The notes beneath the pieces were generated by a model. It was not told the DNA's origin and made no database searches. It worked only from the letters and a program-made list of their open reading frames with translations. DNA of 64,000 nt, from the NCBI GenBank assembly GCA_964515785.1, contig CAZEWH010000002.1, positions 30,182-94,181 on the forward strand, given 5' to 3'. This stretch comes from an uncultured Gammaproteobacteria bacterium (GTDB taxonomy: Bacteria; Patescibacteriota; Patescibacteriia; UBA1558; GWA2-36-10). A program made the position numbers and the translations under genes. Shown here piece after piece: positions 347 through 55,584 of this stretch; the first letter of the stretch is position 1, and each line of letters begins with the position of its first letter.

Positions 347-970
347 TCAATGAACTCTGAAATCAAAAGGTACTGAGGTCGTGGTCTTGACCGGCTGATT
401 GCGTTGTTTACCAGGCTTGAACTTCCATTTCCAAGCAGCTCTGATGGCTTCATCAACCAGCGTTTGTGGAGCAGTAGTGCTCAAGACTTCGACACCAAAG
501 ACTTTGCCTCGTTCATCGACCATGATCAGGACCATGACCAATCCCTCCATGGCAGCTTCTCGAGCCATTTCAGGATAACGGGGTTTGGCCTTGTAGGTGA
601 CAACTGGTGCTTCATCAAAGGCATAAAAGGTTTTGGGACCTTCTAGCTTACCCATGTCTCTTGGCAGAGGCATGTCGTCCAGATTATCCCAGCTGGTGTC
701 TTCGATAGTTTCGTCGTCTGAAGCATCGTCAGAGACTATCATTTGGTATGGCACCTTGGGCATCTTGATTTCCTGCGGCATAGGCGGGATTTCAATGTCG
801 TCAGGAATATCGACCATTTCCATGGTTTCTTGTTCAAGATGATAGGGGGTTGGTCTAAATTCTGGAGTAAAGGTGAAGGCTGATGTTAGCAATAAGACTG
901 CCAACAGACCACAAAAGATCACAATTTTTCTGTAACCTTTTTTGATTTTCTGTTGCTTAGTCATAATCAT
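347..970 (-). CDS. TonB C-terminal domain protein (energy transducer TonB-like): N-terminal membrane anchor, Pro-rich acidic linker, TonB_C-like C-terminus
   Basis: N-terminal hydrophobic anchor (IVIFCGLLAVLLLTSAF). Pro/Glu/Asp-rich spacer (IPPMPQEIKMPKVP). C-terminus YPEMAREAAMEGLVMVLIMVDERGKV...FDFRV, typical of the TonB C-terminal fold. Higher GC than the core. Confidence 0.6.
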   Translation of the reverse strand: MIMTKQQKIKKGYRKIVIFCGLLAVLLLTSAFTFTPEFRPTPYHLEQETMEMVDIPDDIEIPPMPQEIKMPKVPYQMIVSDDASDDETIEDTSWDNLDDMPLPRDMGKLEGPKTFYAFDEAPVVTYKAKPRYPEMAREAAMEGLVMVLIMVDERGKVFGVEVLSTTAPQTLVDEAIRAAWKWKFKPGKQRNQPVKTTTSVPFDFRVH

Positions 971-1147: not shown

Positions 1148-1459
1148 TCAGAGCTGTCCTTGCTGACGATCATAGACCATGCAGGGGAAATCTCCGGGCA
1201 GGTCGATTTGCATGTCGATGCCGTTTGTCATCGTGACATGCATAGAGACATGAGTAGGATGGTCGAGCTGCCAGTCACAGAGACTGGCATATCGCAGCCA
1301 GATTTCCTCGTCATTGATATCACCAGATTCTGCCATAGCCACTTTGATGATCATGGATTTGTCAGGGTCCAGATCAAGCTCGGCCAGGGTGGTGATAGTG
1401 AAGAAACCGTCGTCTGTGTTCCTCTGAAGCATTTCGCGAGCCTGATTGTAGGGATACAT
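1148..1459 (-). CDS. Hypothetical protein (103 aa), acidic, no TM segment
   Basis: AGGAGA Shine-Dalgarno 6 nt upstream of the ATG (revcomp of 1462-1472). Its own terminator at 1098-1128. Higher GC. The overlapping + ORF 1130..1489 lacks these signals. Confidence 0.45.
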   Translation of the reverse strand: MYPYNQAREMLQRNTDDGFFTITTLAELDLDPDKSMIIKVAMAESGDINDEEIWLRYASLCDWQLDHPTHVSMHVTMTNGIDMQIDLPGDFPCMVYDRQQGQL

Positions 1460-4463: not shown

Positions 4464-5498
4464 ATGACAACAAAAGTTTATTTTGAAAACAAAAACGTTT
4501 TGGTATTAGGAGGAGCTGGATTCATCGGATCATATTTGTGTGAAGAATTGGTCAAAAATGGTGATCAAGTGATTTGTGTTGATAATTTTGTTTCTTCTGA
4601 TGTAGAAAATATTCGTTCTTTATTAGAGTATCCAAATTTTGAATTTATCAAACATGATATTACTGAAGATATAGATTATGAGACTTTGCCTGGTTTGAGA
4701 AAATTTAAAGTTGATGGTCAAGGTATTCAAGAAATTTATAATTTGGCTTGTCCAACTGCACCAAAAGATTTTACAAAGTTTCCTATCAAAACAGCCATGG
4801 CCAATTCTATAGGTGTGATAAAGAGTTTGGAGACTGCCAAACAATACAAAGCTCGTTATTTGTTGGCTTCTACTTCAGCTGTCTATGGTGAGCCACCAAA
4901 AGATGGTTCTGCTATCAAAGAGAATTATTATGGTTTACTTGATTATTTAGGACCACGAGCTTGTTACAATGAAGGTAAACGTTTTGCTGAAACATTGATC
5001 ATGACTTATCGTGATACTTATCAGCTCAATACTAGTATTGCTCGTATTTTTGGTACTTATGGACCAAGGATGCTGCAGCATTCTGGTCGTCAAATCCCTG
5101 ATTTTATTAGATCAGCTGTAGACAATCAAGATATAGAAATTGCTGGTGATGACAAAGCTGCATCTACTTTTTGTTATGTCAAAGATATAGTTGAAGGTAT
5201 GATATCATTGATGGCTTCTGAGGTATCTGATCCTATCAATTTAGGTAGTCCTCATACAAGTACTTATACAGCCATGGCTAATACAATTATTGCTTTGACA
5301 AATTCAACCTCTAAGATTACTTATACTGAGGGTCTGAAGTTTGCTAGTCAGCGTCCTACACCAGATATTTCCAAAGCCAAAGAAGAGCTTAATTGGTTAC
5401 CATTGGTGTCCAATGAGGATGGGCTTAAAGAAGCTATTGATTATTTTAAAGCTACTGCTATATTACATGGTCCGCGTTTAGATCAAGACGAAGAATAA
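4464..5498 (+). CDS. NAD-dependent epimerase/dehydratase (SDR), UDP-glucuronate decarboxylase (UXS)-like
   Basis: GGAGFIGSYLCEEL Rossmann motif, VDNF motif, YxxxK region (YNEGKRFAE). Size and layout match the UXS/ArnA C-terminal family. Confidence 0.65.
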   Translation: MTTKVYFENKNVLVLGGAGFIGSYLCEELVKNGDQVICVDNFVSSDVENIRSLLEYPNFEFIKHDITEDIDYETLPGLRKFKVDGQGIQEIYNLACPTAPKDFTKFPIKTAMANSIGVIKSLETAKQYKARYLLASTSAVYGEPPKDGSAIKENYYGLLDYLGPRACYNEGKRFAETLIMTYRDTYQLNTSIARIFGTYGPRMLQHSGRQIPDFIRSAVDNQDIEIAGDDKAASTFCYVKDIVEGMISLMASEVSDPINLGSPHTSTYTAMANTIIALTNSTSKITYTEGLKFASQRPTPDISKAKEELNWLPLVSNEDGLKEAIDYFKATAILHGPRLDQDEE

Positions 5499-15949: not shown

Positions 15950-16723
15950 TCAAGAGCGCTGACGAGCAGGTACTAGCTTGAGTAGCTTGACCGAGATCAG
16001 CCAGTAGTTGAGTGCACCCCAGACAGCGCCAATAGTAGCGCCGAGTAGAGGATTGATCGTAAAGTAGCCGATAGCCGCACCAATGGCAGCGTCAATGCCG
16101 CAGAGCAGGCGCAGATCCGAGTGGATCAACTTGAAGAGTGTGACAGTGAACTTGACGGCAAACTTGACGAGCAAGATTGTGCCAAAGAAAATGCCACGTG
16201 GCAGTGAGTAGAAAAAGACGCGAAAAGGATTGCTGTATTTGATCATGGCTTTGAATAATTTGGTGGCGCTTTCATCAGCAGTAGCAAACAGACTACCAAA
16301 AAGTTGGCTAAACAATAAAATGATACATGCTATTGAAATAAGCATGGCTTTGAGTGACATAAACTGCGAGGTAGCTGAGACATCAAAGTCAGACATGATA
16401 TAGCCTAAACCGTATAGCCACATGCAGATTACGAGCATAAGCTGCACACCACGCAGGAAGCTACGCCATTCCTTGATCATGAACTTAAAGTACATAATCA
16501 AGCCACCGAGGCTGTATTTCCAGGTTTCGCGTCTGGCCGTGCGCCAGGCAGTCGGAATATTGCGGATGACCTCTGCAGGATCGTAGGCTAAATAGCCGGC
16601 CAATCCGCCAGCTAACAAGCCGATCCACCAGAAATTGGCAGTGAACTGCAGAGCCACCATAGCCCCGATAAAGGCGCCAGCAAAGACTGCTAGCATGACT
16701 TTAATTACGTTTCGTGTGTGCAC
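15950..16723 (-). CDS. Polytopic membrane protein (257 aa), hypothetical, in a compositionally distinct island
   Basis: GTG start preceded by an AAGGAGG SD. About 50% GC (against ~30% for neighbours). At least 6 hydrophobic helices. No recognisable family. Confidence 0.5.
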   Translation of the reverse strand: MHTRNVIKVMLAVFAGAFIGAMVALQFTANFWWIGLLAGGLAGYLAYDPAEVIRNIPTAWRTARRETWKYSLGGLIMYFKFMIKEWRSFLRGVQLMLVICMWLYGLGYIMSDFDVSATSQFMSLKAMLISIACIILLFSQLFGSLFATADESATKLFKAMIKYSNPFRVFFYSLPRGIFFGTILLVKFAVKFTVTLFKLIHSDLRLLCGIDAAIGAAIGYFTINPLLGATIGAVWGALNYWLISVKLLKLVPARQRS

Positions 16724-16862
16724 AACGTGCCTCCTTTGTGAAAGTACAGATTTCGAACTATGCTGAAATTAACATAATATGCTTATTTTGTCAATTTATA
16801 TAGATTTAGCTGCTCTAGATTTTTTTATTGGATTATGTTAAAATAACTACACATTATCAGCT

Positions 16863-26393: not shown

Positions 26394-26421
26394 TTGACAA
26401 AACAAAAAAAATCTGTATAAT
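26394..26421 (+). promoter_or_regulatory. Consensus sigma70-type promoter TTGACA-N16-TATAAT upstream of infA
   Basis: Exact TTGACA (26394-26399) and TATAAT (26416-26421), about 100 nt upstream of the infA ATG. Confidence 0.5.
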
Positions 26422-30544: not shown

Positions 30545-30868
30545 TTAGGTTGTTGTAGGGAAGGCGAAGACGCCGATTGTTTGGAAGAGCGCTTCGATGA
30601 TTTCAAAGGGAACTGGTTTCTTTTGACCACTTTCCCAGTCGGGGGTGTACAGCTCTTTGACCTCCAGGGTCACCTCATATGTCGGTAAGGCCGTTTCCTT
30701 GCCGTGGGGTTGCTTATTGGGGTTGCTTTTTGAACTGACGATCTTGATGATATAGCGTTGATGATTTTTTTCAGCAGACTCTGGTTCATGGTATAGATTC
30801 CAATTGCCTTGCAAAAAAACATGAAGATCGTTGAGTTGTGCGACCGAAAGACTGGTTTTTAGCAACAT
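30545..30868 (-). CDS. Hypothetical protein (107 aa from the ATG at 30868; the ORF track extends to a TTG at 30919), cargo of a direct-repeat-flanked mini-island
   Basis: Perfect AGGAGG SD 6 nt upstream of the ATG (MLLKTSLSVAQL...). About 45% GC. Own terminator. No recognisable family. Confidence 0.5.
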   Translation of the reverse strand: MLLKTSLSVAQLNDLHVFLQGNWNLYHEPESAEKNHQRYIIKIVSSKSNPNKQPHGKETALPTYEVTLEVKELYTPDWESGQKKPVPFEIIEALFQTIGVFAFPTTT

Positions 30869-31066: not shown

Positions 31067-31282
31067 CTAAGATTTGAGGAGCTTGAGGAGCTGCTCGCGT
31101 TGGAGATGCGTATTCAGCATGGCAGTGAATGTGGCTAGGAAAATCAGGGCAATTGCCATGAAGGCGATAGTCAGCCAGAGATTGACGTCATTTTGCATAT
31201 CCATCCAGACGTCCAGTTGTATGATCGCCATGAAGACGAAAAATAGAAAAGCGAATATCACGATGGTCATGTTGGCTTTCAT
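31067..31282 (-). CDS. Small 2-TM membrane protein (71 aa from the SD-preceded ATG; the track starts at 31303)
   Basis: GGGAGGG SD 5 nt upstream of the ATG (MKANMTIVIFAFLFF...). Two hydrophobic helices. Higher GC. Confidence 0.45.
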   Translation of the reverse strand: MKANMTIVIFAFLFFVFMAIIQLDVWMDMQNDVNLWLTIAFMAIALIFLATFTAMLNTHLQREQLLKLLKS

Positions 31283-31406
31283 TTTTGCCCTCCCACGGGC
31301 CATTAGAATTGAAGAACGGATGAATTATTCTATAATAGCACATATTTAGTGTTTTGTCAATAGTAGTAAACTATTATTTTATAGGCTATTTTGCTATAAT
31401 TAGAGC

Positions 31407-39188: not shown

Positions 39189-39209
39189 AAACTCCTCGTT
39201 GTGAGGAGT
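39189..39209. terminator. Hairpin aactcctc-gttg-gaggagtt; terminator of the minus-strand small-protein pair and probably also of the + GT operon
   Basis: 8-bp stem with a T-rich tract on the minus side (revcomp of 39170-39188). Confidence 0.5.
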
Positions 39210-39409
39210 TAATACAAAGGCTTTCTGGATATCCATTGCTTTTGGAATAATTTCCAAAATTTTTTGACAGGTTCACCAAATAAGATAACAGCTCCTATGA
39301 TTGGTAATACTATCTTATACATCCACCACAGTGGTTCAAAGAGGAAACTGAGGAACATCAGAAAAAGTAAAGTAGTTATGATCAGGGCTGGCAAGAAGTG
39401 TTTGAACAT
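39209..39409 (-). CDS. Small 2-TM membrane protein (66 aa), hypothetical
   Basis: Hydrophobic helices ALIITTLLFLMFLSFLF and IVLPIIGAVILFG. Higher GC than the core. Confidence 0.45.
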   Translation of the reverse strand: MFKHFLPALIITTLLFLMFLSFLFEPLWWMYKIVLPIIGAVILFGEPVKKFWKLFQKQWISRKPLY

Positions 39410-39412
39410 ATA

Positions 39413-39580
39413 TCAATCCCTTCCAAGTTGAGTAGCCAAATATGGCGGTGTGAATATAATCCCAAGGACTGCTAAGATTATTAAACCAACTACCCAAGTA
39501 GCTAGTATGCCTACAGTTAAGAAGGCAAAAAGACTAGAGATCATAAAGAATGCTTTGAACAGAGACAGTATGGCACGCAT
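39413..39580 (-). CDS. Small 2-TM membrane protein (55 aa); not in the ORF track. Co-transcribed upstream partner of the 66-aa protein.
   Basis: Hand translation gives MRAILSLFKAFFMISSLFAFLTVGILATWVVGLIILAVLGIIFTPPYLATQLGRD. AGGGGGG SD upstream. Its stop lies 3 nt before the next ATG. Confidence 0.4.
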   Translation of the reverse strand: MRAILSLFKAFFMISSLFAFLTVGILATWVVGLIILAVLGIIFTPPYLATQLGRD

Positions 39581-39618
39581 TTTGCCCCCCTTTCAGTGAA
39601 GAGAACTAAGAACAAAAT

Positions 39619-39647
39619 AAGCCTAGCAAGCTATAGATTTTTTGTCA
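39619..39647 (-). promoter_or_regulatory. Candidate promoter TTGACA-N17-TAGGCT for the small-protein pair (minus strand)
   Basis: Exact TTGACA (revcomp of 39642-39647) overlapping the T-run of the upstream terminator; 17-nt spacer. Confidence 0.35.
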
Positions 39648-39680
39648 AAAAAATCCCCCGACCAAGTTTCAGTCGAGGGG
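39648..39680 (-). terminator. Intrinsic terminator of the 141-aa gene (cccctcgac...gtcggggg + TTTTTTT on minus)
   Basis: GC stem with one bulge followed by a 7-nt T-run on the minus strand. Confidence 0.55.
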
Positions 39681-40094
39681 TTTGTATATTCTGCGTAGCC
39701 TAGATATTAGCGCTACGCTAGGAACTTTCTTAGATATTAATTCCCAGTCTTCTAGGGAACAATCACCCAAGTGAAGTAATTCACGAGCAGCTTGCTCGCG
39801 TAATTCTGGTACTAGGTCAATAATACATCTTAAATGTAATTTGATCGGGCAATCTTGTAGAAGAACTAGGGCTGCATCCTTGCGAAAATCTGGAACAGTT
39901 TCGATAATAGCACCGATTTGCCGAAAATTAGGTTTACGCAGCTTTTGATGATGATAGCGGCGCAAAAGCTCTTTGGCAGATTGGCGAGCATGAAATCTGT
40001 TTCCGTAGACCAATTTCTTGAGATAGAAATTGGAGTAAAAGTGGTGTAACCTCCAGTTTTGCCACCAGTCTCGAAGTTTTTCGAGTGTGTACAT
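39669..40094 (-). CDS. Hypothetical basic protein (141 aa)
   Basis: AGGGAG SD 7 nt upstream of the ATG. About 45% GC. No TM segment. Rich in R/H/L. No family recognised. Confidence 0.5.
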   Translation of the reverse strand: MYTLEKLRDWWQNWRLHHFYSNFYLKKLVYGNRFHARQSAKELLRRYHHQKLRKPNFRQIGAIIETVPDFRKDAALVLLQDCPIKLHLRCIIDLVPELREQAARELLHLGDCSLEDWELISKKVPSVALISRLRRIYKPLD

Positions 40095-40243
40095 GGTGAA
40101 CTCCCTATTTGTAGACGAAAAGAATGTGCTAGAGAATACTTATTAGTATATCATATTTATAGCGTTTTGTCAACGTATAGTGTTTTGTGGTTGATTTTTA
40201 GCCCAAAATTAGCTATCATTATTGTATAATTTAATTAGATTTT

Positions 40244-45273: not shown

Positions 45274-46101
45274 ATGTCAAGAATTAAGACAAAAACTACC
45301 TGGCAACGTCACTTACCACAAAAACCCCGTAGGGTGTACCGTGGCTATTATCAGGCACAGAAAAAAAAATCAAACAAAAAAATTATTCGTATTATTTGGT
45401 TGATAGTTTTTATTTTTTTGTTGCAAAGTATATGGCAATTGCCGTTTTTACGTATAGATAATATAAATATTCATAACAATCAAGATACAACTATTCAAGA
45501 GATCAAAGAATCTATTGAACCTGAGCTTACAGTCAGTCGTTGGTTGATATTCAAAAACAATAATTACTTTTTATTTGATAGTCAGTCCATGAAAGACATA
45601 CTGATACTTGAATATAATCTGGATGATGTTGTTATTACAAAAAAATTTCCAAATACTATTGATGTTACTGTTCATGAAAAAGTTTCTCATTTTATTTGGC
45701 AAAAAGATGATACTTTATACCTTTTGGATAGCAATGGGGCCTTAAATCGCCAAATAAGAGCTTTGGATAATAAATACCTTATTTTACGGGACCTAAGAAC
45801 ATCTACATCTAATAATGATATAAAATTTAGTCCCGAAGAGATAAATATTATTCATCAAATATATCTGAAGTGGTTTGAACTAGTTGGCTCCAAAGCCAAA
45901 CTTGTTAGAATTGATATAGACGATGACTGGAATTTATTAGAATTGTATACTGAAGTTGGTTATTATGTAAAACTAGATGCTAGTGAAGATATTACAGAAC
46001 AATTAGATAACTTAAATAAAATATTATTTGCCGGCAATATAACTGGAGTAGATATAGACTATATTGATATACGCTTTGGTGATAAGGTCTTTTTTAAATA
46101 A
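45274..46101 (+). CDS. Cell division protein FtsQ/DivIB-like (N-terminal TM + POTRA)
   Basis: Basic N-terminus, one TM helix (IIWLIVFIFLLQSIW), then a ...KFPNTIDVTVHEK POTRA-like segment. Confidence 0.55.
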   Translation: MSRIKTKTTWQRHLPQKPRRVYRGYYQAQKKKSNKKIIRIIWLIVFIFLLQSIWQLPFLRIDNINIHNNQDTTIQEIKESIEPELTVSRWLIFKNNNYFLFDSQSMKDILILEYNLDDVVITKKFPNTIDVTVHEKVSHFIWQKDDTLYLLDSNGALNRQIRALDNKYLILRDLRTSTSNNDIKFSPEEINIIHQIYLKWFELVGSKAKLVRIDIDDDWNLLELYTEVGYYVKLDASEDITEQLDNLNKILFAGNITGVDIDYIDIRFGDKVFFK

Positions 46102-46199
46102 TAAGCTATTATTGCTTATTATTTTTTATTACACTAATTGAGTATAATATCTCTTACACTCAGTTTGACATAGTATATTTTATTATATATACTTAAAAC

Positions 46200-47165
46200 A
46201 TGGCTAAAACAAAGCAAAGCAAACAAAAGCATCATCTTCCCCTCTTGGACGAGTTCTTGGAGAATATTCAGTCTAATAACTACTCCCCAGAGACTGTTTA
46301 CAATTATGAACGGGACTTAAATACTTTTGCCAATTTTTTGAACGAAGATATTAAGACAGCTTTTAATAAACTTACTAAGCGATCAATTATAAAGTTTAAG
46401 GCTTACCTCTCCTCTACTTCCAGACGGACAGCCCTACATGAAGCTGGTCAAAGAAAATTATCAAGTTATAGTATCAATAGAATTTTGTCGGCTTTGAGGT
46501 CTTATCTCAAATTTTTGGTTGATATGGATCAACATCCACCTATTACAGCTGATGCAGTCAAGATGCTTAAAACAGAAAAGAAGTATGGTCAGGTACCAGA
46601 GATGACTGAACTTATCAAACTTATAGAAGCACCAAATAAATTTGAAAAAGATTCAAATATAGCTTTACGTAATCGAGCTATGTTAGAAACTTTATTTGCT
46701 ACTGGTATGCGTATTTCTGAATTATTATCTCTCAAGCGTCAGCAACTTGATCAATCTGGTCGGATTTATGTGATGGGTAAAGGTAAAAAACAACGTTTTG
46801 TTTATTTGACTCCTCGCGCTATCAAACATATTTCTGCTTATCTTAAGACTAGACATGATGATTCACCTTTTTTGTTTATTCCTTATCGTGGTCGCAACAA
46901 TGCTAATAAAAACAAAAAAATATCAACTAATTATTTGCAATACAAAATAAAACGCTATCGTGAGTTGTTGTCTATAAATATTCCAATTTCAGCTCACTCT
47001 ATTAGACATAGTTTTGCTACTTATTTGGCAGAGTCAGGTGCTAATCCAGCTGCTATCCAGATTTTACTTGGTCACGAGTCTTTGGATACTACCACTCGTT
47101 ATGTACATGCTTCTGATAGATATGCAGAAAAAAGTCATACTAAATATCATCCACTTAAATCATAA
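46200..47165 (+). CDS. Tyrosine site-specific recombinase (XerC/XerD family)
   Basis: R...HxxR...Y catalytic set: RNRAMLETLFATGMRISEL, HSIRHSFATYL, LLGHESLDTTTRYVH. Confidence 0.8.
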   Translation: MAKTKQSKQKHHLPLLDEFLENIQSNNYSPETVYNYERDLNTFANFLNEDIKTAFNKLTKRSIIKFKAYLSSTSRRTALHEAGQRKLSSYSINRILSALRSYLKFLVDMDQHPPITADAVKMLKTEKKYGQVPEMTELIKLIEAPNKFEKDSNIALRNRAMLETLFATGMRISELLSLKRQQLDQSGRIYVMGKGKKQRFVYLTPRAIKHISAYLKTRHDDSPFLFIPYRGRNNANKNKKISTNYLQYKIKRYRELLSINIPISAHSIRHSFATYLAESGANPAAIQILLGHESLDTTTRYVHASDRYAEKSHTKYHPLKS

Positions 47166-47178
47166 AATAAAAACCCCG

Positions 47179-47268
47179 CTAGTTGGCAGGGTTGTAGATC
47201 CAGAGCACATAAGCTGATCTGATCAGGATCAGCGAAGCTGCTAGGATAAAAGCTATGGCTGGAACCAT
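47179..47268 (-). CDS. Tiny hydrophobic ORF (29 aa), weakest of three
   Basis: MVPAIAFILAASLILIRSAYVLWIYNPAN. No clear SD. Listed for completeness. Confidence 0.2.
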   Translation of the reverse strand: MVPAIAFILAASLILIRSAYVLWIYNPAN

Positions 47269-47335
47269 AATTTTTTTGGATACTTTGATGTCAATGCATT
47301 TGACTTTGTTGTGTTGCTCCAAAATGTTTCTCCGT

Positions 47336-47440
47336 TTATTTGAATGTAATTAAGATCATAGCTACTATAGCTAGAGCTATCAGGATGACCGTTGCTCTTG
47401 GTTTTATTAGCCACCTGAGCAGTTCTCCTAAGAGATACAT
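47336..47440 (-). CDS. Tiny hydrophobic peptide (34 aa) with a strong SD
   Basis: AAGGAGAT SD 6 nt upstream of the ATG; MYLLGELLRWLIKPRATVILIALAIVAMILITFK (single TM helix). Confidence 0.35.
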   Translation of the reverse strand: MYLLGELLRWLIKPRATVILIALAIVAMILITFK

Positions 47441-47483
47441 GTGATTATCTCCTTGTGCAAGGAACAGTGAACTAAAGTAGTTT

Positions 47484-47512
47484 AAATAAAAAAGGGAGTC
47501 TTGTCAACTCCC
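47484..47512 (-). terminator. Intrinsic terminator after the 26-aa peptide gene (gggagt-tgacaag-actccc + TTTTTTATTT on minus)
   Basis: 6-bp perfect stem followed by a T-run on the minus strand, 12 nt after the stop codon. Confidence 0.45.
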
Positions 47513-47524
47513 AGGAAAAAGGGC

Positions 47525-47605
47525 TTAGACAGCAGTGAAATGGGCTGCCAGAGCCATGACTATGAAAAAACCGAGCCAAGATAAGAAAAAGATTCTGCGA
47601 AACAT
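47525..47605 (-). CDS. Tiny hydrophobic peptide (26 aa) with its own consensus promoter, SD and terminator
   Basis: TAGGAGAA SD 6 nt upstream of the ATG; MFRRIFFLSWLGFFIVMALAAHFTAV. TTGACA-N17-TATACT promoter 55-80 nt upstream. Confidence 0.4.
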   Translation of the reverse strand: MFRRIFFLSWLGFFIVMALAAHFTAV

Positions 47606-47658
47606 GTTGTGTTCTCCTAAGGTTGTGGTGCAGTTTCTCCCTGTTATCAATGATATTA

Positions 47659-47687
47659 AGTATAGCATATTTTATATATTTTGTCAA
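47659..47687 (-). promoter_or_regulatory. Consensus sigma70-type promoter TTGACA-N17-TATACT (minus strand) driving the 26-aa peptide gene
   Basis: TTGACA is the revcomp of 47682-47687; TATACT is the revcomp of 47659-47664; exact 17-nt spacer. Confidence 0.45.
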
Positions 47688-47693
47688 GGATAT

Positions 47694-47735
47694 AAAACAA
47701 CCTCGAAGGTTTTTAAACCTTCGAGGTTGTTTAGT
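47694..47735. terminator. Strong hairpin (16-bp perfect stem aacaacctcgaaggtt/aaccttcgaggttgtt), terminator of the M23 peptidase gene
   Basis: Verified perfect inverted repeat with a 4-nt loop, directly downstream of the minus-strand stop at 47741. Confidence 0.7.
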
Positions 47736-47740
47736 AGATT

Positions 47741-49012
47741 TTATGGCAAATAGTTTAAAGGATTAACTGGTACACCATTAACACGTGTTTCAAAGTGTAA
47801 ATGAGGTCCAGATGATAATGGGCCAGCTCCTCTAGTACCAGGCATACCACCACTATAAGCAATTATTTGACCCTTAGAAACAAATTGGTCAGTAGATACT
47901 GAAAATTGATTAACATGACCATAAACAGTAGATAAATTATTGGCATGAACAACCATAATATAACTATAACCAGTTTGTCCTCCATCTTTTATTTTAGCCA
48001 CATAACCAGATTCTGCAGCCCTGAGAGGTGTGCCTTGTGGTACAGCAATATCTATAGCTGGATGTTCAAATATCCATCTGTATGGATAATCTGGATCATG
48101 GAAATAAGCAGTAATAGTTCGAGCTGATACTGGCCACATCAAACCATTACTTTCCAAACCAACTTGTTGTAATTCTCGATTAAGTTTTTCTCTAGCAATT
48201 TTTTCTAAATAAACTATGTCGTTGTTGATTTGTTCTTGTTCTTCTTTTGTTTGCTGGAGTAAAGCTTGAAAATTTGCTTCTTGACCTTCAGTAATAGACA
48301 TTAGATTGTATTTGGCAGATTTTTGTGAATCTAGTGTACCTTTTTTACCCTCTAGGACACTTTCTAAAATATCAAGCTCGCTTATTTCTGTTTTTAAATT
48401 ATCTTTGTCATTGTTCAGGGCCAATTTTATTTCATTTAGATCTTCGACTTCTTTGACTAGACTATCTTGCATGTTTTCTAGATGATCTATCTCAGCTAAA
48501 AAGTCAGAAAAATTATCATTGAGCAATAGGATTTCTACCATATTACTATCTTGTTGTTTACGATGTAGAGTACGGATAATTTCTGCAACAATTTCTTTTT
48601 GATCTTCAATTTCTCTTTCTTTGGCTTGGATTTTGAGTTCTGTGTTTTCTATTTTAAGATCTAGAGTTTCCATTTCTAATCCTACTTTGTCTACTTCCAG
48701 ATTGATCTTACCAATACTTTCATTCAAAGTACTGACTTGATTGGAAAGACTAGTCAACTCTCGTTGTTTAGCACTAATATTTTTTTTATAAACATCAATT
48801 TGGCGAGTAAGTTCTTGGATCTCTGACCTCTTTTCATTGATATCTTGGTTGATTTGCCAGGTTTCAACACTATTTAGATCATCTATAGTATATTCAGTAG
48901 CTTGAGTGGGGAGAGTATAAAAAACAGCACTAATAAAAGTGCTAATTAAGAAGATGTTTATAAATTTATTTGTTTTTGTTTTAACTAACATGTATAAGAG
49001 TATTTTTAGCAT
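47741..49012 (-). CDS. M23-family metallopeptidase with N-terminal coiled-coil (EnvC/murein-hydrolase-activator-like)
   Basis: N-terminal anchor, long coiled-coil (QxxLxxL heptads), C-terminal LytM domain (HANNLSTVYGHVN ... GPHLHFETRVNGVPVNP). Confidence 0.85.
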   Translation of the reverse strand: MLKILLYMLVKTKTNKFINIFLISTFISAVFYTLPTQATEYTIDDLNSVETWQINQDINEKRSEIQELTRQIDVYKKNISAKQRELTSLSNQVSTLNESIGKINLEVDKVGLEMETLDLKIENTELKIQAKEREIEDQKEIVAEIIRTLHRKQQDSNMVEILLLNDNFSDFLAEIDHLENMQDSLVKEVEDLNEIKLALNNDKDNLKTEISELDILESVLEGKKGTLDSQKSAKYNLMSITEGQEANFQALLQQTKEEQEQINNDIVYLEKIAREKLNRELQQVGLESNGLMWPVSARTITAYFHDPDYPYRWIFEHPAIDIAVPQGTPLRAAESGYVAKIKDGGQTGYSYIMVVHANNLSTVYGHVNQFSVSTDQFVSKGQIIAYSGGMPGTRGAGPLSSGPHLHFETRVNGVPVNPLNYLP

Positions 49013-54131: not shown

Positions 54132-54187
54132 TATATTATATTTTAAACTATCTCACTTTTTGGTGGGGTGTTTTTTGTTAGATTGAC

Positions 54188-54216
54188 AAAATATATATAA
54201 TACATTATAACTATAT
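54188..54216 (+). promoter_or_regulatory. Candidate promoter TTGACA-N17-TATAAC for the 147-aa gene
   Basis: Exact TTGACA at 54188-54193, about 45 nt upstream of an AAAAGGAG SD and the ATG at 54264. Confidence 0.35.
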
Positions 54217-54263: not shown

Positions 54264-54707
54264 ATGGAGGGACCAGTAGTAGTTTTTTGGTTTTTGGTTG
54301 TCAGCGCTATTCTTTGGATAATTTTTGGCGATTTTATAAAATCGAACAAGAAATCCACTTCATCAGTCAAACAGAAGGAGGAGACTGTGAACAGTAATCA
54401 GTTACCGGTTGTGACACCGGACATTTTGCCAGCTCGTCGGTCTATTCTGGATTCGTATGGTTGGAATAATACGCCAACTGTGATATCATCTCCGGAACCA
54501 GAAGCAGTCTTAGCTAGTCATAATCCGCGTATAGCTCTTAAGGTTTTGAAAACTGCTCAGCAGGGTGAGTTTGCTCGCATTACTGCTCTGCAGATGGCTG
54601 GTGTAGCTAGTCAGGCCTTGCTCGTCAATCCACAGGTTCGTGAGATTGAGTTCAATCTCAAAGTTAGTGGTGGCTTTAAAGCCAAGGGCAAGGTGAGGTT
54701 ACGGTGA
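54264..54707 (+). CDS. Hypothetical protein (147 aa) with an N-terminal TM anchor
   Basis: AAAGGAG SD; N-terminal hydrophobic helix (VVFWFLVVSAILWIIFG). About 44% GC. No family recognised. Confidence 0.45.
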   Translation: MEGPVVVFWFLVVSAILWIIFGDFIKSNKKSTSSVKQKEETVNSNQLPVVTPDILPARRSILDSYGWNNTPTVISSPEPEAVLASHNPRIALKVLKTAQQGEFARITALQMAGVASQALLVNPQVREIEFNLKVSGGFKAKGKVRLR

Positions 54708-55050: not shown

Positions 55051-55079
55051 TTGACAAAAAATCATAAATATTTTATAAT
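55051..55079 (+). promoter_or_regulatory. Consensus sigma70-type promoter TTGACA-N17-TATAAT upstream of def
   Basis: Exact hexamers at 55051-55056 and 55074-55079. Confidence 0.45.
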
Positions 55080-55086
55080 ATAAGCT

Positions 55087-55584
55087 ATGTTAAAAATAAC
55101 TAAATATCCAGCCGAAATTTTACGTCAAAACGCTAAGCCAATTAGCGAATTTGATGATGCTTTGAAAAAATTGGCTGAAGATATGGCCAAGATCATGTAT
55201 GAAGATGATGGTATTGGTCTGGCTGGGCCACAAGTATCTTTGTCCAAAAATATTATTATAATTGGTGATCAAGACGGCAAATCTTGGCAAGCTTATATAA
55301 ATCCAGTGATTACTTATATTTCTAAAAACACTACTACTACTGAAGAAGGTTGCTTATCTTTACCTGATATATTTGGTAATGTGACTCGTCCCAAAAAGAT
55401 TAGATTCAAATATCAAGATCTTGATGGCAAGACTCATAAGGCTAAAGCTAAAGGTCTAGATGCTATAATTGTCCAACATGAGATAGATCATCTCAACGGC
55501 GTGCTGTTTATTGATAGAGCTGATAAAATAACTAAAGGCCAAGAAATTTTAGATAGTTTAAAAAATAATGCAAACAATAAATAA
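55087..55584 (+). CDS. def: Peptide deformylase
   Basis: GIGLAGPQV, EGCLSLPD and QHEIDHLNG motifs. Confidence 0.9.
   Translation: MLKITKYPAEILRQNAKPISEFDDALKKLAEDMAKIMYEDDGIGLAGPQVSLSKNIIIIGDQDGKSWQAYINPVITYISKNTTTTEEGCLSLPDIFGNVTRPKKIRFKYQDLDGKTHKAKAKGLDAIIVQHEIDHLNGVLFIDRADKITKGQEILDSLKNNANNK

Follow-up and report, generated by a model that had tools for sequence, protein, structure and literature searches.

Small membrane proteins of 50 amino acids (aa) or fewer, such as AcrZ, KdpF, CydX, MgtS and the divisome-associated Blr, are to our knowledge a poorly charted layer of envelope regulation of which nothing is known in bacteria of the candidate phyla radiation (CPR), and no report of type I toxin-antitoxin or such small-protein genes in CPR bacteria was found in the literature. 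The stretch of DNA analysed here, hereafter the window, comprises 64,000 nucleotides of a Patescibacteria genome (assembly GCA_964515785.1, contig CAZEWH010000002.1, positions 30,182 to 94,181 of the forward strand). The spacer between its xerC and M23 peptidase genes appears to be a compact cassette of three protein-coding mini-genes, pep1, pep2 and pep3, of 26, 34 and 47 aa, in two transcription units. Their predicted products are reminiscent of the AcrZ/KdpF/CydX/MgtS/Blr class in having a single hydrophobic helix, a basic cytoplasmic end and their own ribosome-binding sites within 26-47 aa, as well as in being missed by annotation, conserved in a narrow clade and encoded beside envelope and cell-division genes. 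They differ from that class in showing no sequence relationship to it, in the combination of three unrelated peptides in one two-promoter cassette, in their occurrence in a Patescibacteria genome, and in codon and Shine-Dalgarno (SD) usage that departs from the rest of that genome. The reading favored here, with a probability of about 0.6, is that they are three clade-restricted single-pass small membrane proteins that serve as partners of the envelope or division machinery.

The spacer extends over 575 bp (47166-47740) of an AT-rich window (33% GC), and the initial annotation had correctly described it as richer in GC than its surroundings (0.38 as against 0.32 in housekeeping genes) and as devoid of any open reading frame (ORF) longer than 72 aa, which is the length of its longest. 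The prediction that standard gene finders would miss such mini-genes also holds, for the spacer carries no called gene in any of the six identical contigs that were inspected, and neither the 34-aa nor the 47-aa product has a record in an index of 153 billion gene positions. As these six contigs share an identical XerC protein and a 100% identical spacer, they are uninformative on population variation. Sequence signals on the minus strand delineate two units, one with the order P1-SD-pep1-T1 and the other with the order P2-SD-pep2-SD-pep3-T2 (Table 1). With the exception of the third ORF, all sequence features and coordinates listed in the initial annotation were recovered, namely the TTGACA-N17-TATACT promoter, which matches the consensus at 11 of 12 positions and has a TG before the -10 box, the SD and the 26-aa ORF behind it, the GGGAGT..ACTCCC terminator with its T-run, and the 34-aa ORF with its own SD. 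The third ORF, given there as a weak frame of 29 aa, had been mis-delimited and corresponds to the 47-aa frame that begins at a TTG with a GGAG 7 nt ahead of it, both of which are kept in all four lineages described below.

Table 1. Features of the cassette and its flanks, followed by related elements found elsewhere. Positions refer to the window unless a locus identifier (L) precedes them; GC3, GC content at third codon positions.
Feature	Position	Strand	Description
M23 peptidase gene	47741-49012	-	upstream of the module, on the same strand as the peptides
M23 terminator hairpin	47695..47732	-	perfect 18-bp arms, 2-nt loop; upstream boundary of the module
Putative promoter P1	47659..47687	-	TTGACA (as extended TTGACAAAA), 17 nt, TG, TATACT; 11/12 positions
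Leader element	47631..47645	-	AACAGGGAGAAACTG; 14/15 positions invariant in four lineages, one A/G change
pep1 SD	47614..47618	-	AGGAG, 8 nt before ATG
pep1	47525..47605	-	26 aa, ATG start; MFRRIFFLSWLGFFIVMALAAHFTAV
Predicted terminator T1	47484..47512	-	GGGAGTT-loop-GACTCCC, then T-run
Putative promoter P2	47479..47507	-	TTGACA = T1 loop, 17 nt, TAAACT; 10/12 positions
pep2 SD	47449..47453	-	AGGAG, 8 nt before ATG
pep2	47336..47440	-	34 aa, ATG start; MYLLGELLRWLIKPRATVILIALAIVAMILITFK
pep3 SD	47330..47333	-	GGAG, 7 nt before TTG, a few nt past the pep2 stop
pep3	47179..47322	-	47 aa, TTG start; MEQHNKVKCIDIKVSKKIMVPAIAFILAASLILIRSAYVLWIYNPAN
Predicted terminator T2	47162..47193	-	AACCCTG-loop-CGGGGTT and T-run; overlaps the pep3 stop
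xerC	46200-47165	+	Pfam Phage_integrase and SAM-like domain; convergent with the M23 gene
Example sites of TTGACAAAA	1033-1041 (-), 16786-16794 (-), 26394-26402 (+), 31352-31360 (-), 40165-40173 (-), 47679-47687 (-), 54183-54191 (+), 55051-55059 (+)		extended -35
Copies of GGGAGTTGACAARACTCCCTTTTTT elsewhere	L053:204-228, L054:956-980, L056:667-691, L057:5685-5709, L058:8216-8240		locus GC 0.38-0.51
Examples of SD-led, GC3-rich islet ORFs	347-970 (-), 1148-1459 (-), 15950-16723 (-), 30545-30868 (-), 31067-31282 (-), 39669-40094 (-), 54264-54707 (+)
Second compact unit	39209-39648	-	TTGACAAAA -35 joined to the upstream terminator's T-run; GGGGGG follows
55-aa two-helix ORF	39580..39413	-	in the second compact unit
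66-aa two-helix ORF	39409..39209	-	starts 3 nt past the stop of the 55-aa ORF
Second-unit terminator		-	AACTCCTC..GAGGAGTT and T-run

The coding nature of the three ORFs could be assessed by comparison with relatives at a suitable distance. In 37 xerC-anchored loci from GTDB species-representative genomes, whose XerC proteins are at most 84% identical to that of the window and whose closest records are labelled as metagenome-assembled genomes of Parcubacteria, Komeilibacteria or Patescibacteria, the gene orders serS-alr-ftsQ-xerC and M23-gltX-wecG are kept on the two sides of the spacer, while neither the module nor its peptides were detected in any of them by blastn, tblastn or profile hidden Markov model searches. 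Intermediate relatives were then found by means of the faster-evolving M23 protein: contigs with M23 proteins 91, 88 and 87% identical to that of the window carry the module at nucleotide identities of 74% (lineage B; L044, L045, L051 and L055), 78% (lineage A; L046-48 and L052) and 68% (lineage C; L049 and L050). Tblastn with the peptides against these loci gave E-values of 1e-6 to 1e-16. In the four lineages, the window being counted as one, all three ORFs are open, with lengths of 25-26 aa for pep1, 32-35 aa for pep2 and 46-51 aa for pep3, and their starts and SDs are conserved. Alternative frames, an upstream extension of pep1 to a 47-aa ORF with an ATG at 47668 and the ORFs of 71-72 aa, were discarded as they either start within the promoter or run in frames with stops in other lineages.

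Nei-Gojobori counts over the six lineage pairs, with about 102 codons pooled, revealed a proportion of nonsynonymous differences (pN) below that of synonymous differences (pS) for each ORF in all six pairs, with a pooled ratio of the corresponding rates (dN/dS) of 0.25-0.45. The values were pN 0.11-0.30 against pS 0.46-0.75 for pep1 (at 56-71% aa identity), pN 0.13-0.40 against pS 0.41-0.76 for pep2 and pN 0.15-0.36 against pS 0.28-0.56 for pep3. Differences fall most often on the third codon position and least often on the second (e.g. 27/14/39 and 41/29/55 at the first, second and third positions), and the internal indels are of 3, 6 and 12 nt (3 and 6 in pep2, 3 and 12 in pep3). The proposed frames contain no stop in any lineage and have the lowest pN/pS among the sense frames, whereas the other two sense frames, taken as a control, have pN/pS of 0.66-2.3 and 1 to 28 stop codons. 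These frame-specific substitutions, the deficit of nonsynonymous change and the open frames together indicate that the ORFs encode proteins, a check that the initial annotation had itself proposed, and it is very probable that all three are genuine genes for hydrophobic peptides maintained by selection.

A test against chance points in the same direction. When an ORF was required to have at least 25 aa, a GGAG 5-10 nt upstream and a 17-residue window with a mean hydropathy of at least 2.2, the spacer contained three on one strand and the entire window seven on both strands, while among 5000 dinucleotide-preserving shuffles of the spacer one such ORF on a strand arose in 0.14% and two or more in none. 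The possibility named along with the initial proposal, that these ORFs might arise at the rate expected of random sequence, is thus not borne out, and the proposal itself, of stand-alone SD-led hydrophobic mini-genes with their own promoter and terminator, is upheld jointly by conservation, purifying selection and this test.

Searches for known relatives were uniformly negative beyond the close lineages. The peptides gave only sub-threshold noise against Pfam, NCBIfam and PHROGs (LHC at E=0.03 and phrog_9768 at E=0.009), and none of the three matched phage or plasmid DNA in tblastn searches. For pep3, a word-indexed HMMER search of 5.8 billion proteins with the four-sequence alignment yielded no match at E<=10, and an exhaustive phmmer search of 1.84 billion representatives none at E<=0.001. 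On the RNA side, no Rfam family matched positions 46000-49000 at E<=1 or reached the gathering score in the whole window or in ten relatives, and ARAGORN found no transfer or transfer-messenger RNA; the palindrome of the M23 terminator produced spurious sub-threshold Rfam matches to His_leader, psRNA14 and mir-374.

The three peptides are mutually dissimilar and not paralogous, and the module occurs once, no paralogue of it being present elsewhere in the window. Each has one transmembrane helix predicted from hydropathy windows (mean of 2.4-3.0 over 17 residues), with conserved basic residues N-terminal to it and a positive-inside asymmetry. In pep1 an N-terminal RR precedes a hydrophobic core of 17 residues, after which come a conserved A-x-A and an [AV]H[FV]T-type tail; in pep2 the basic, amphipathic N-terminal part is followed by the conserved P[KR]AT motif, the helix and a C-terminal lysine; and pep3 combines a basic N-terminal tail of 18 residues with one transmembrane segment and an invariant C-terminal WIYNP. 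As the basic N-termini (RR, R.LIKPR and the K-rich 18-residue tail, respectively) are followed by 17-18 hydrophobic residues, the peptides are predicted to insert into the cytoplasmic membrane as single-pass proteins with the N-terminus inside. The invariant residues are R3, R4, I5, F6, L8, W10, F14, A18, A20, H22 and T24 in pep1, P.AT and the terminal K in pep2, and F-I-L, S, L-I and WIYNP in pep3. The N-terminal KVKC.[DE]I[KR].SKK of pep3 is conserved in three of the four lineages, and its internal ATG is not conserved. In pep1 the series F6-W10-F14-A18-H22, spaced at i/i+4, suggests a packing face, and a specific packing of the helices is likewise suggested by the polar, aromatic or small nature of these residues and of the conserved T of pep2 and the S and WIYNP of pep3.

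The signals that would drive expression of the cassette are likewise conserved. In the four-way alignment 86% of P1 (25 of 29 positions) is invariant, followed by 79% of the block after pep3 that contains T2, 70% of the T1/P2 block and 39-52% of the ORFs, as against 10% of the segment just after the M23 gene. P1, P2, T1 and T2 were each detected independently in the window, in a lineage A contig (L046) and in a lineage C contig (L049). The extended -35 motif TTGACAAAA, of which P1 contains a copy, occurs at 14 sites in the window where 2.7 are expected, an approximately five-fold excess that none of 100 shuffles reached. These sites are mostly intergenic and lie upstream of ORFs of both gene classes discussed below, including infA-rpmJ, and the motif is probably the organism's own promoter consensus, which means that P1 matches a native extended promoter. 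Transcription from P1 is predicted to start near 47652, which would give pep1 a leader of some 45 nt that ends with its SD. This SD reads AGGAG in the window and in lineage A, and AAGGA in both lineage B and lineage C. A separate, nearly invariant leader element, AACAGGGAGAAACTG, is situated some 25 nt ahead of the pep1 start codon; a function as standby SD, operator or structural element is conceivable, and a conserved pairing of it is weakly supported, with one compensatory pair and a covariation term of -0.12.

Between pep1 and pep2 the loop of T1 doubles as the -35 box of P2, whose -10 box reads TAATAT in two relatives. The invariant 25-nt T1/P2 element GGGAGTTGACAARACTCCCTTTTTT was also recovered between unrelated genes of unrelated genomes, always with TATTAT, TACAAT or TATAAT 17-18 nt downstream, and two of these copies lie in IMG/VR viral contigs. 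The recurrent -10 box supports the dual function of T1/P2, and the element looks like a convergent, compact fusion of terminator and promoter. These matches from metagenome and virus scans were rejected as homologues, since beyond the known lineages only the terminator-promoter design is shared and the two viral contigs are without the module. The SD of pep3 lies only a few nt past the pep2 stop, which makes translational coupling of the two likely. T2 is bidirectional and shared with the convergent xerC, with invariant stems and a variable loop. The terminator of the M23 gene, by comparison, is not conserved in sequence, sister lineages using different hairpins.

Taken together, a transcript from the near-consensus, native P1 would carry pep1 and end at T1, and one from P2 would carry pep2 and, probably by translational coupling, pep3 up to T2; that the cassette is transcribed and translated is what both the sequence signals and the selection on its frames suggest. 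The peptides would sit in the cytoplasmic membrane as single-pass proteins, N-terminus inside. There they may associate with envelope proteins as membrane-embedded partners or modulators, or form a small hetero-oligomer, either of which is favored over a poisonous action. They fit the general description of small membrane proteins, being short ORFs with an initiation signal, a conserved frame and purifying selection, and having one predicted helix with a positive-inside charge asymmetry. Given the neighboring alr, ftsQ and EnvC-like M23 genes, and the presence of ddl in the same slot of Magasanikbacteria-like relatives, the cell-wall and division machinery is their most plausible arena. On balance, benign membrane partners are a better account than toxins or secreted signals, with odds modestly above even.

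Several observations weigh against this account. The envelope-partner, non-toxic role draws on analogy and neighborhood, and no homologue with a known function was found in Pfam, NCBIfam, PHROGs or the protein-set, phage and plasmid searches. The constraint is fairly relaxed at the dN/dS values given above, and the peptides evolve faster (51-74% identity) than their housekeeping neighbor M23 (87-91%). A 1-nt indel two codons before the stop of pep1 in the window alters its last one or two residues. One antisense frame also has a lowish pN/pS (0.48-0.60), as expected because the third positions coincide, and it is interrupted by stops in both pep2 and pep3. Conservation is higher in the regulatory RNA and DNA elements than in the peptides, and an additional role at the RNA level is accordingly possible. 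Finally, the comparison draws on four lineages only, which are phylogenetically non-independent.

An alternative is that pep1, or all three peptides, damage the membrane in the manner of type I toxins, by depolarization or permeabilization, with expression held back at the RNA level by sequestration of the leader or SD or by a putative antitoxin RNA; pep2 and pep3 might instead be immunity proteins. The module shares with Hok, Ldr, TisB, Fst, AapA1 and ZorO the arrangement of a gene for a small hydrophobic peptide that has its own promoter and intrinsic terminator, and the products, each with a single hydrophobic helix, remain below the 60 aa of that class. Furthermore, the module is clade-restricted and occupies a variable slot, and the pep1 mRNA folds somewhat better than its shuffles (z = -2.5), U-rich codons pairing with the SD and the leader. 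In this single-sequence fold the leader is predicted to pair with the translation-initiation region, a resemblance to type I toxins, and it contains the invariant element together with one compensatory change in the predicted pairing to the start-codon region. Yet the consensus structure of the four lineages is weak, with the covariation and the single compensatory pair noted above, and differs from the single-sequence fold. The search for an antitoxin RNA gene was negative. Sigma-70-like antisense promoter sites are absent from the window and from L049, with one weak site (9 of 12 positions) in L046 of lineage A; neither the invariant leader nor the initiation region has a complementary sequence in the window; and the DNA upstream of P1 is unconserved, which argues against a divergent small RNA gene. 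In contrast to type I toxins, the window has no antisense or adjacent RNA gene, the module is single-copy, and the near-consensus P1 and SD point to a high, constitutive expression; residues that are conserved resemble packing surfaces. A profile search for type I toxin families, proposed when the type I architecture was first suggested for this spacer, gave no match to Hok, Ldr, TisB, Fst, Ibs or any other Pfam or NCBIfam toxin model. In the light of these results the toxin-antitoxin suggestion is unlikely to be correct.

Somewhat less likely still is that pep1 is the precursor of a secreted signal of 5-6 residues akin to Phr or SHP. By eye, its first 20 residues can be parsed as a signal peptide with n-, h- and c-regions (MFRR, IFFLSWLGFFIVM and A-L-A), and cleavage after A-x-A would free AHFTAV, or AHFTG, VHFTG or VHVTS in the other lineages. 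A18-x-A20, H22 and T24 are invariant in the four lineages despite their extreme C-terminal position, a hydrophobic core of 13-17 residues is rather short for a membrane anchor, and pep1 has its own strong promoter and its own terminator. This very short, signal-like sequence followed by a few conserved residues is what pep1 would share with the RRNPP/Phr/SHP precursors. Known precursors such as those of Phr, PapR and NprX, however, are longer and have a pro-region, which pep1 lacks, and the organism is not a Firmicute. No receptor gene, whether an RRNPP/TPR-type regulator or a histidine kinase, and no processing or export gene lies adjacent, the neighbors being housekeeping genes. Moreover, many bona fide small membrane proteins resemble uncleaved signal peptides, and pep2 and pep3, which have no cleavage motif, would be left unexplained.

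That the ORFs are untranslated, the locus being a non-coding RNA or the decayed remains of a larger membrane-protein gene, is very improbable. Structured RNAs in AT-rich genomes are typically GC-richer than their surroundings, as the spacer is, its regulatory blocks are better conserved than its ORFs, and the same slot in L007 and L008 holds an apparently non-coding transcript; against this stand the lack of an Rfam family match, the pN below pS with frame-specific substitutions, stop-free frames, conserved starts and SDs and in-frame indels, and the chance test, which speaks against incidental ORFs, while a single decayed gene is incompatible with the conserved terminator and promoter between pep1 and pep2. 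The remaining suggestions of the initial annotation, phage-like holin or lysis peptides, taken here as acting together with the neighboring M23 peptidase, and a multi-peptide leaderless bacteriocin, draw on the position of three tandem hydrophobic peptides directly downstream of a peptidoglycan hydrolase gene on the same strand, and some leaderless bacteriocins do consist of three peptides in tandem, but the genomic context largely refutes them and leaves them barely credible: M23 is a core gene whose synteny with gltX is conserved in many relatives without the module, and in lineage A it is separated from the module by a PGA_cap gene; phage genes are absent, and neither PHROGs (above noise) nor tblastn against phage and plasmid DNA gave a match; and the peptides are dissimilar, uninterrupted hydrophobic anchors rather than paralogous, cationic amphipathic helices, with neither an ABC exporter nor an immunity gene nearby (the neighbors being xerC, M23, gltX, ftsQ and alr).

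The slot between xerC and M23, surveyed at this junction in L002, L005-L016, L023 and L044-L049, is variable, its length ranging from 98 to 1957 bp in the 37 xerC-anchored loci. It holds ddl in Magasanikbacteria-like genomes, and other small ORFs or nothing in Komeilibacteria-like ones; in lineage A the PGA_cap gene lies between M23 and the module. In L007 (positions 4990-5215, + strand) and the equivalent region of L008, which are without the module, the slot is occupied by a GC-rich segment of about 190 nt, without a match in Rfam, that lies between a putative TTGACAAAAAAAA...TGCTAAGAT promoter and a strong terminator, GGGGGACGCGCTTCGGCACGTCCCC with a T-run. A 5-nt indel between the two in this segment indicates that it is non-coding, and it is a candidate for an unannotated small RNA gene. 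In lineages A and B the gene of a further tyrosine recombinase, of 317 aa and with 32% identity to XerC, is inserted together with a 189-aa ORF between ftsQ and the xerC orthologue. The adjacency of the module to a recombinase gene, which the initial annotation regarded as suggestive, loses its force, since xerC is a core, syntenic gene in the 37 related genomes, in none of whose loci the module is present. A mobile-element origin was considered on account of a 23-nt imperfect inverted repeat that flanks the module (the P1 region and the 3' end of xerC) and was rejected: such repeats are chance-like (2 observed against 0.9 +/- 0.8 in shuffles), and in relatives without the module the arm in xerC is simply part of the conserved coding sequence.

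Examination of the other genes of the window revealed that the three mini-genes belong with a second class of genes. An SD core (GGAG, GAGG or AGGA at -16 to -4) precedes all three mini-ORFs and only 4 of the 65 large ORFs; the housekeeping ORFs, with a GC3 of 0.22 +/- 0.03, thus largely lack an SD (61 of 65). Apart from them there are isolated ORFs, here termed islets, that combine a promoter of the TTGACAAAA type with a roughly 45-nt leader and a strong SD, at a GC content of 0.42-0.50 and a GC3 of 0.34-0.67, and most of which encode small membrane proteins. The mini-ORFs have a GC3 of 0.44-0.62 in the four lineages although their pS is 0.45-0.63, as against 0.19-0.26 for M23 and gltX, and the log-likelihood ratio of their synonymous codons favors the islet class by +6.7 to +20 bits, the 99th percentile of the housekeeping genes being +1.6. 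Expression-linked codon bias was rejected as the cause of the high GC3, since the ribosomal-protein genes fall into the low class (0.13-0.25). A recent import from a host was likewise not supported for the one islet gene tested, whose 257-aa product belongs to a Patescibacteria-wide family and whose lineage C orthologue has a GC3 of 0.68 among neighbors of 0.20-0.36, with the same promoter and SD. Hence the high-GC3 signature looks like a maintained property of the islet genes, not the fading mark of an import, although slow amelioration of imported peptide genes is conceivable.

A second compact unit of this kind, with a 55-aa and a 66-aa two-helix ORF in tandem, both smaller than what is usually annotated, lies at 39209-39648, and neither product matched a family in Pfam, NCBIfam or PHROGs. 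Also in the SD-led, high-GC3 class is the ORF at 347-970, whose 207-aa product combines an N-terminal membrane helix with a TonB C-terminal domain (Pfam E = 8.5e-19); the Patescibacteria are not thought to have an outer membrane, which makes a TonB domain unexpected. Several housekeeping genes, including the M23 gene, xerC and the gene at 55087-55584 (+), have instead a TATAAT-like box 5-7 nt before the start and no SD, which as an impression suggests that leaderless mRNAs are common in this genome.

The partition of genes by initiation signal is reminiscent of the Bacteroidia, where most genes likewise lack an SD and a small set has strong ones. In Flavobacterium johnsoniae the anti-SD is sequestered by bS21, bS18 and bS6, and rpsU is the SD-bearing exception (PMC7797042, PMC9976891, PMC13000453). 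Here, by comparison, the phylum is another one, and the GC3-rich genes that have an SD encode small membrane and envelope proteins, not a ribosomal protein. By analogy with control through bS21, it might be speculated that the cassette is the visible tip of a separate expression regime, in which SD-dependent translation of the islet genes is switchable, pep1 is a membrane-active or secreted effector in episymbiosis, and pep2 and pep3 are its partners or immunity proteins; this remains a long shot.

Thus, in conclusion, the locus would add three previously uncalled genes to a streamlined CPR genome, and with them three new small-protein families, relatives of which were absent among the 1.84 billion representative proteins searched for pep3. 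It also indicates that GC-richer "empty" spacers of AT-rich Patescibacteria can be dense coding cassettes, not RNA genes or junk, and it offers clean examples both of the native promoter, with the extended -35 TTGACAAAA and an extended -10, and of a terminator loop that doubles as the -35 box of the next promoter. The division into an SD-less, low-GC3 core and SD-led, high-GC3 islets is a more unusual lead than the peptides themselves, and could be used both for finding unannotated genes and for asking how translation initiation is partitioned in these organisms.

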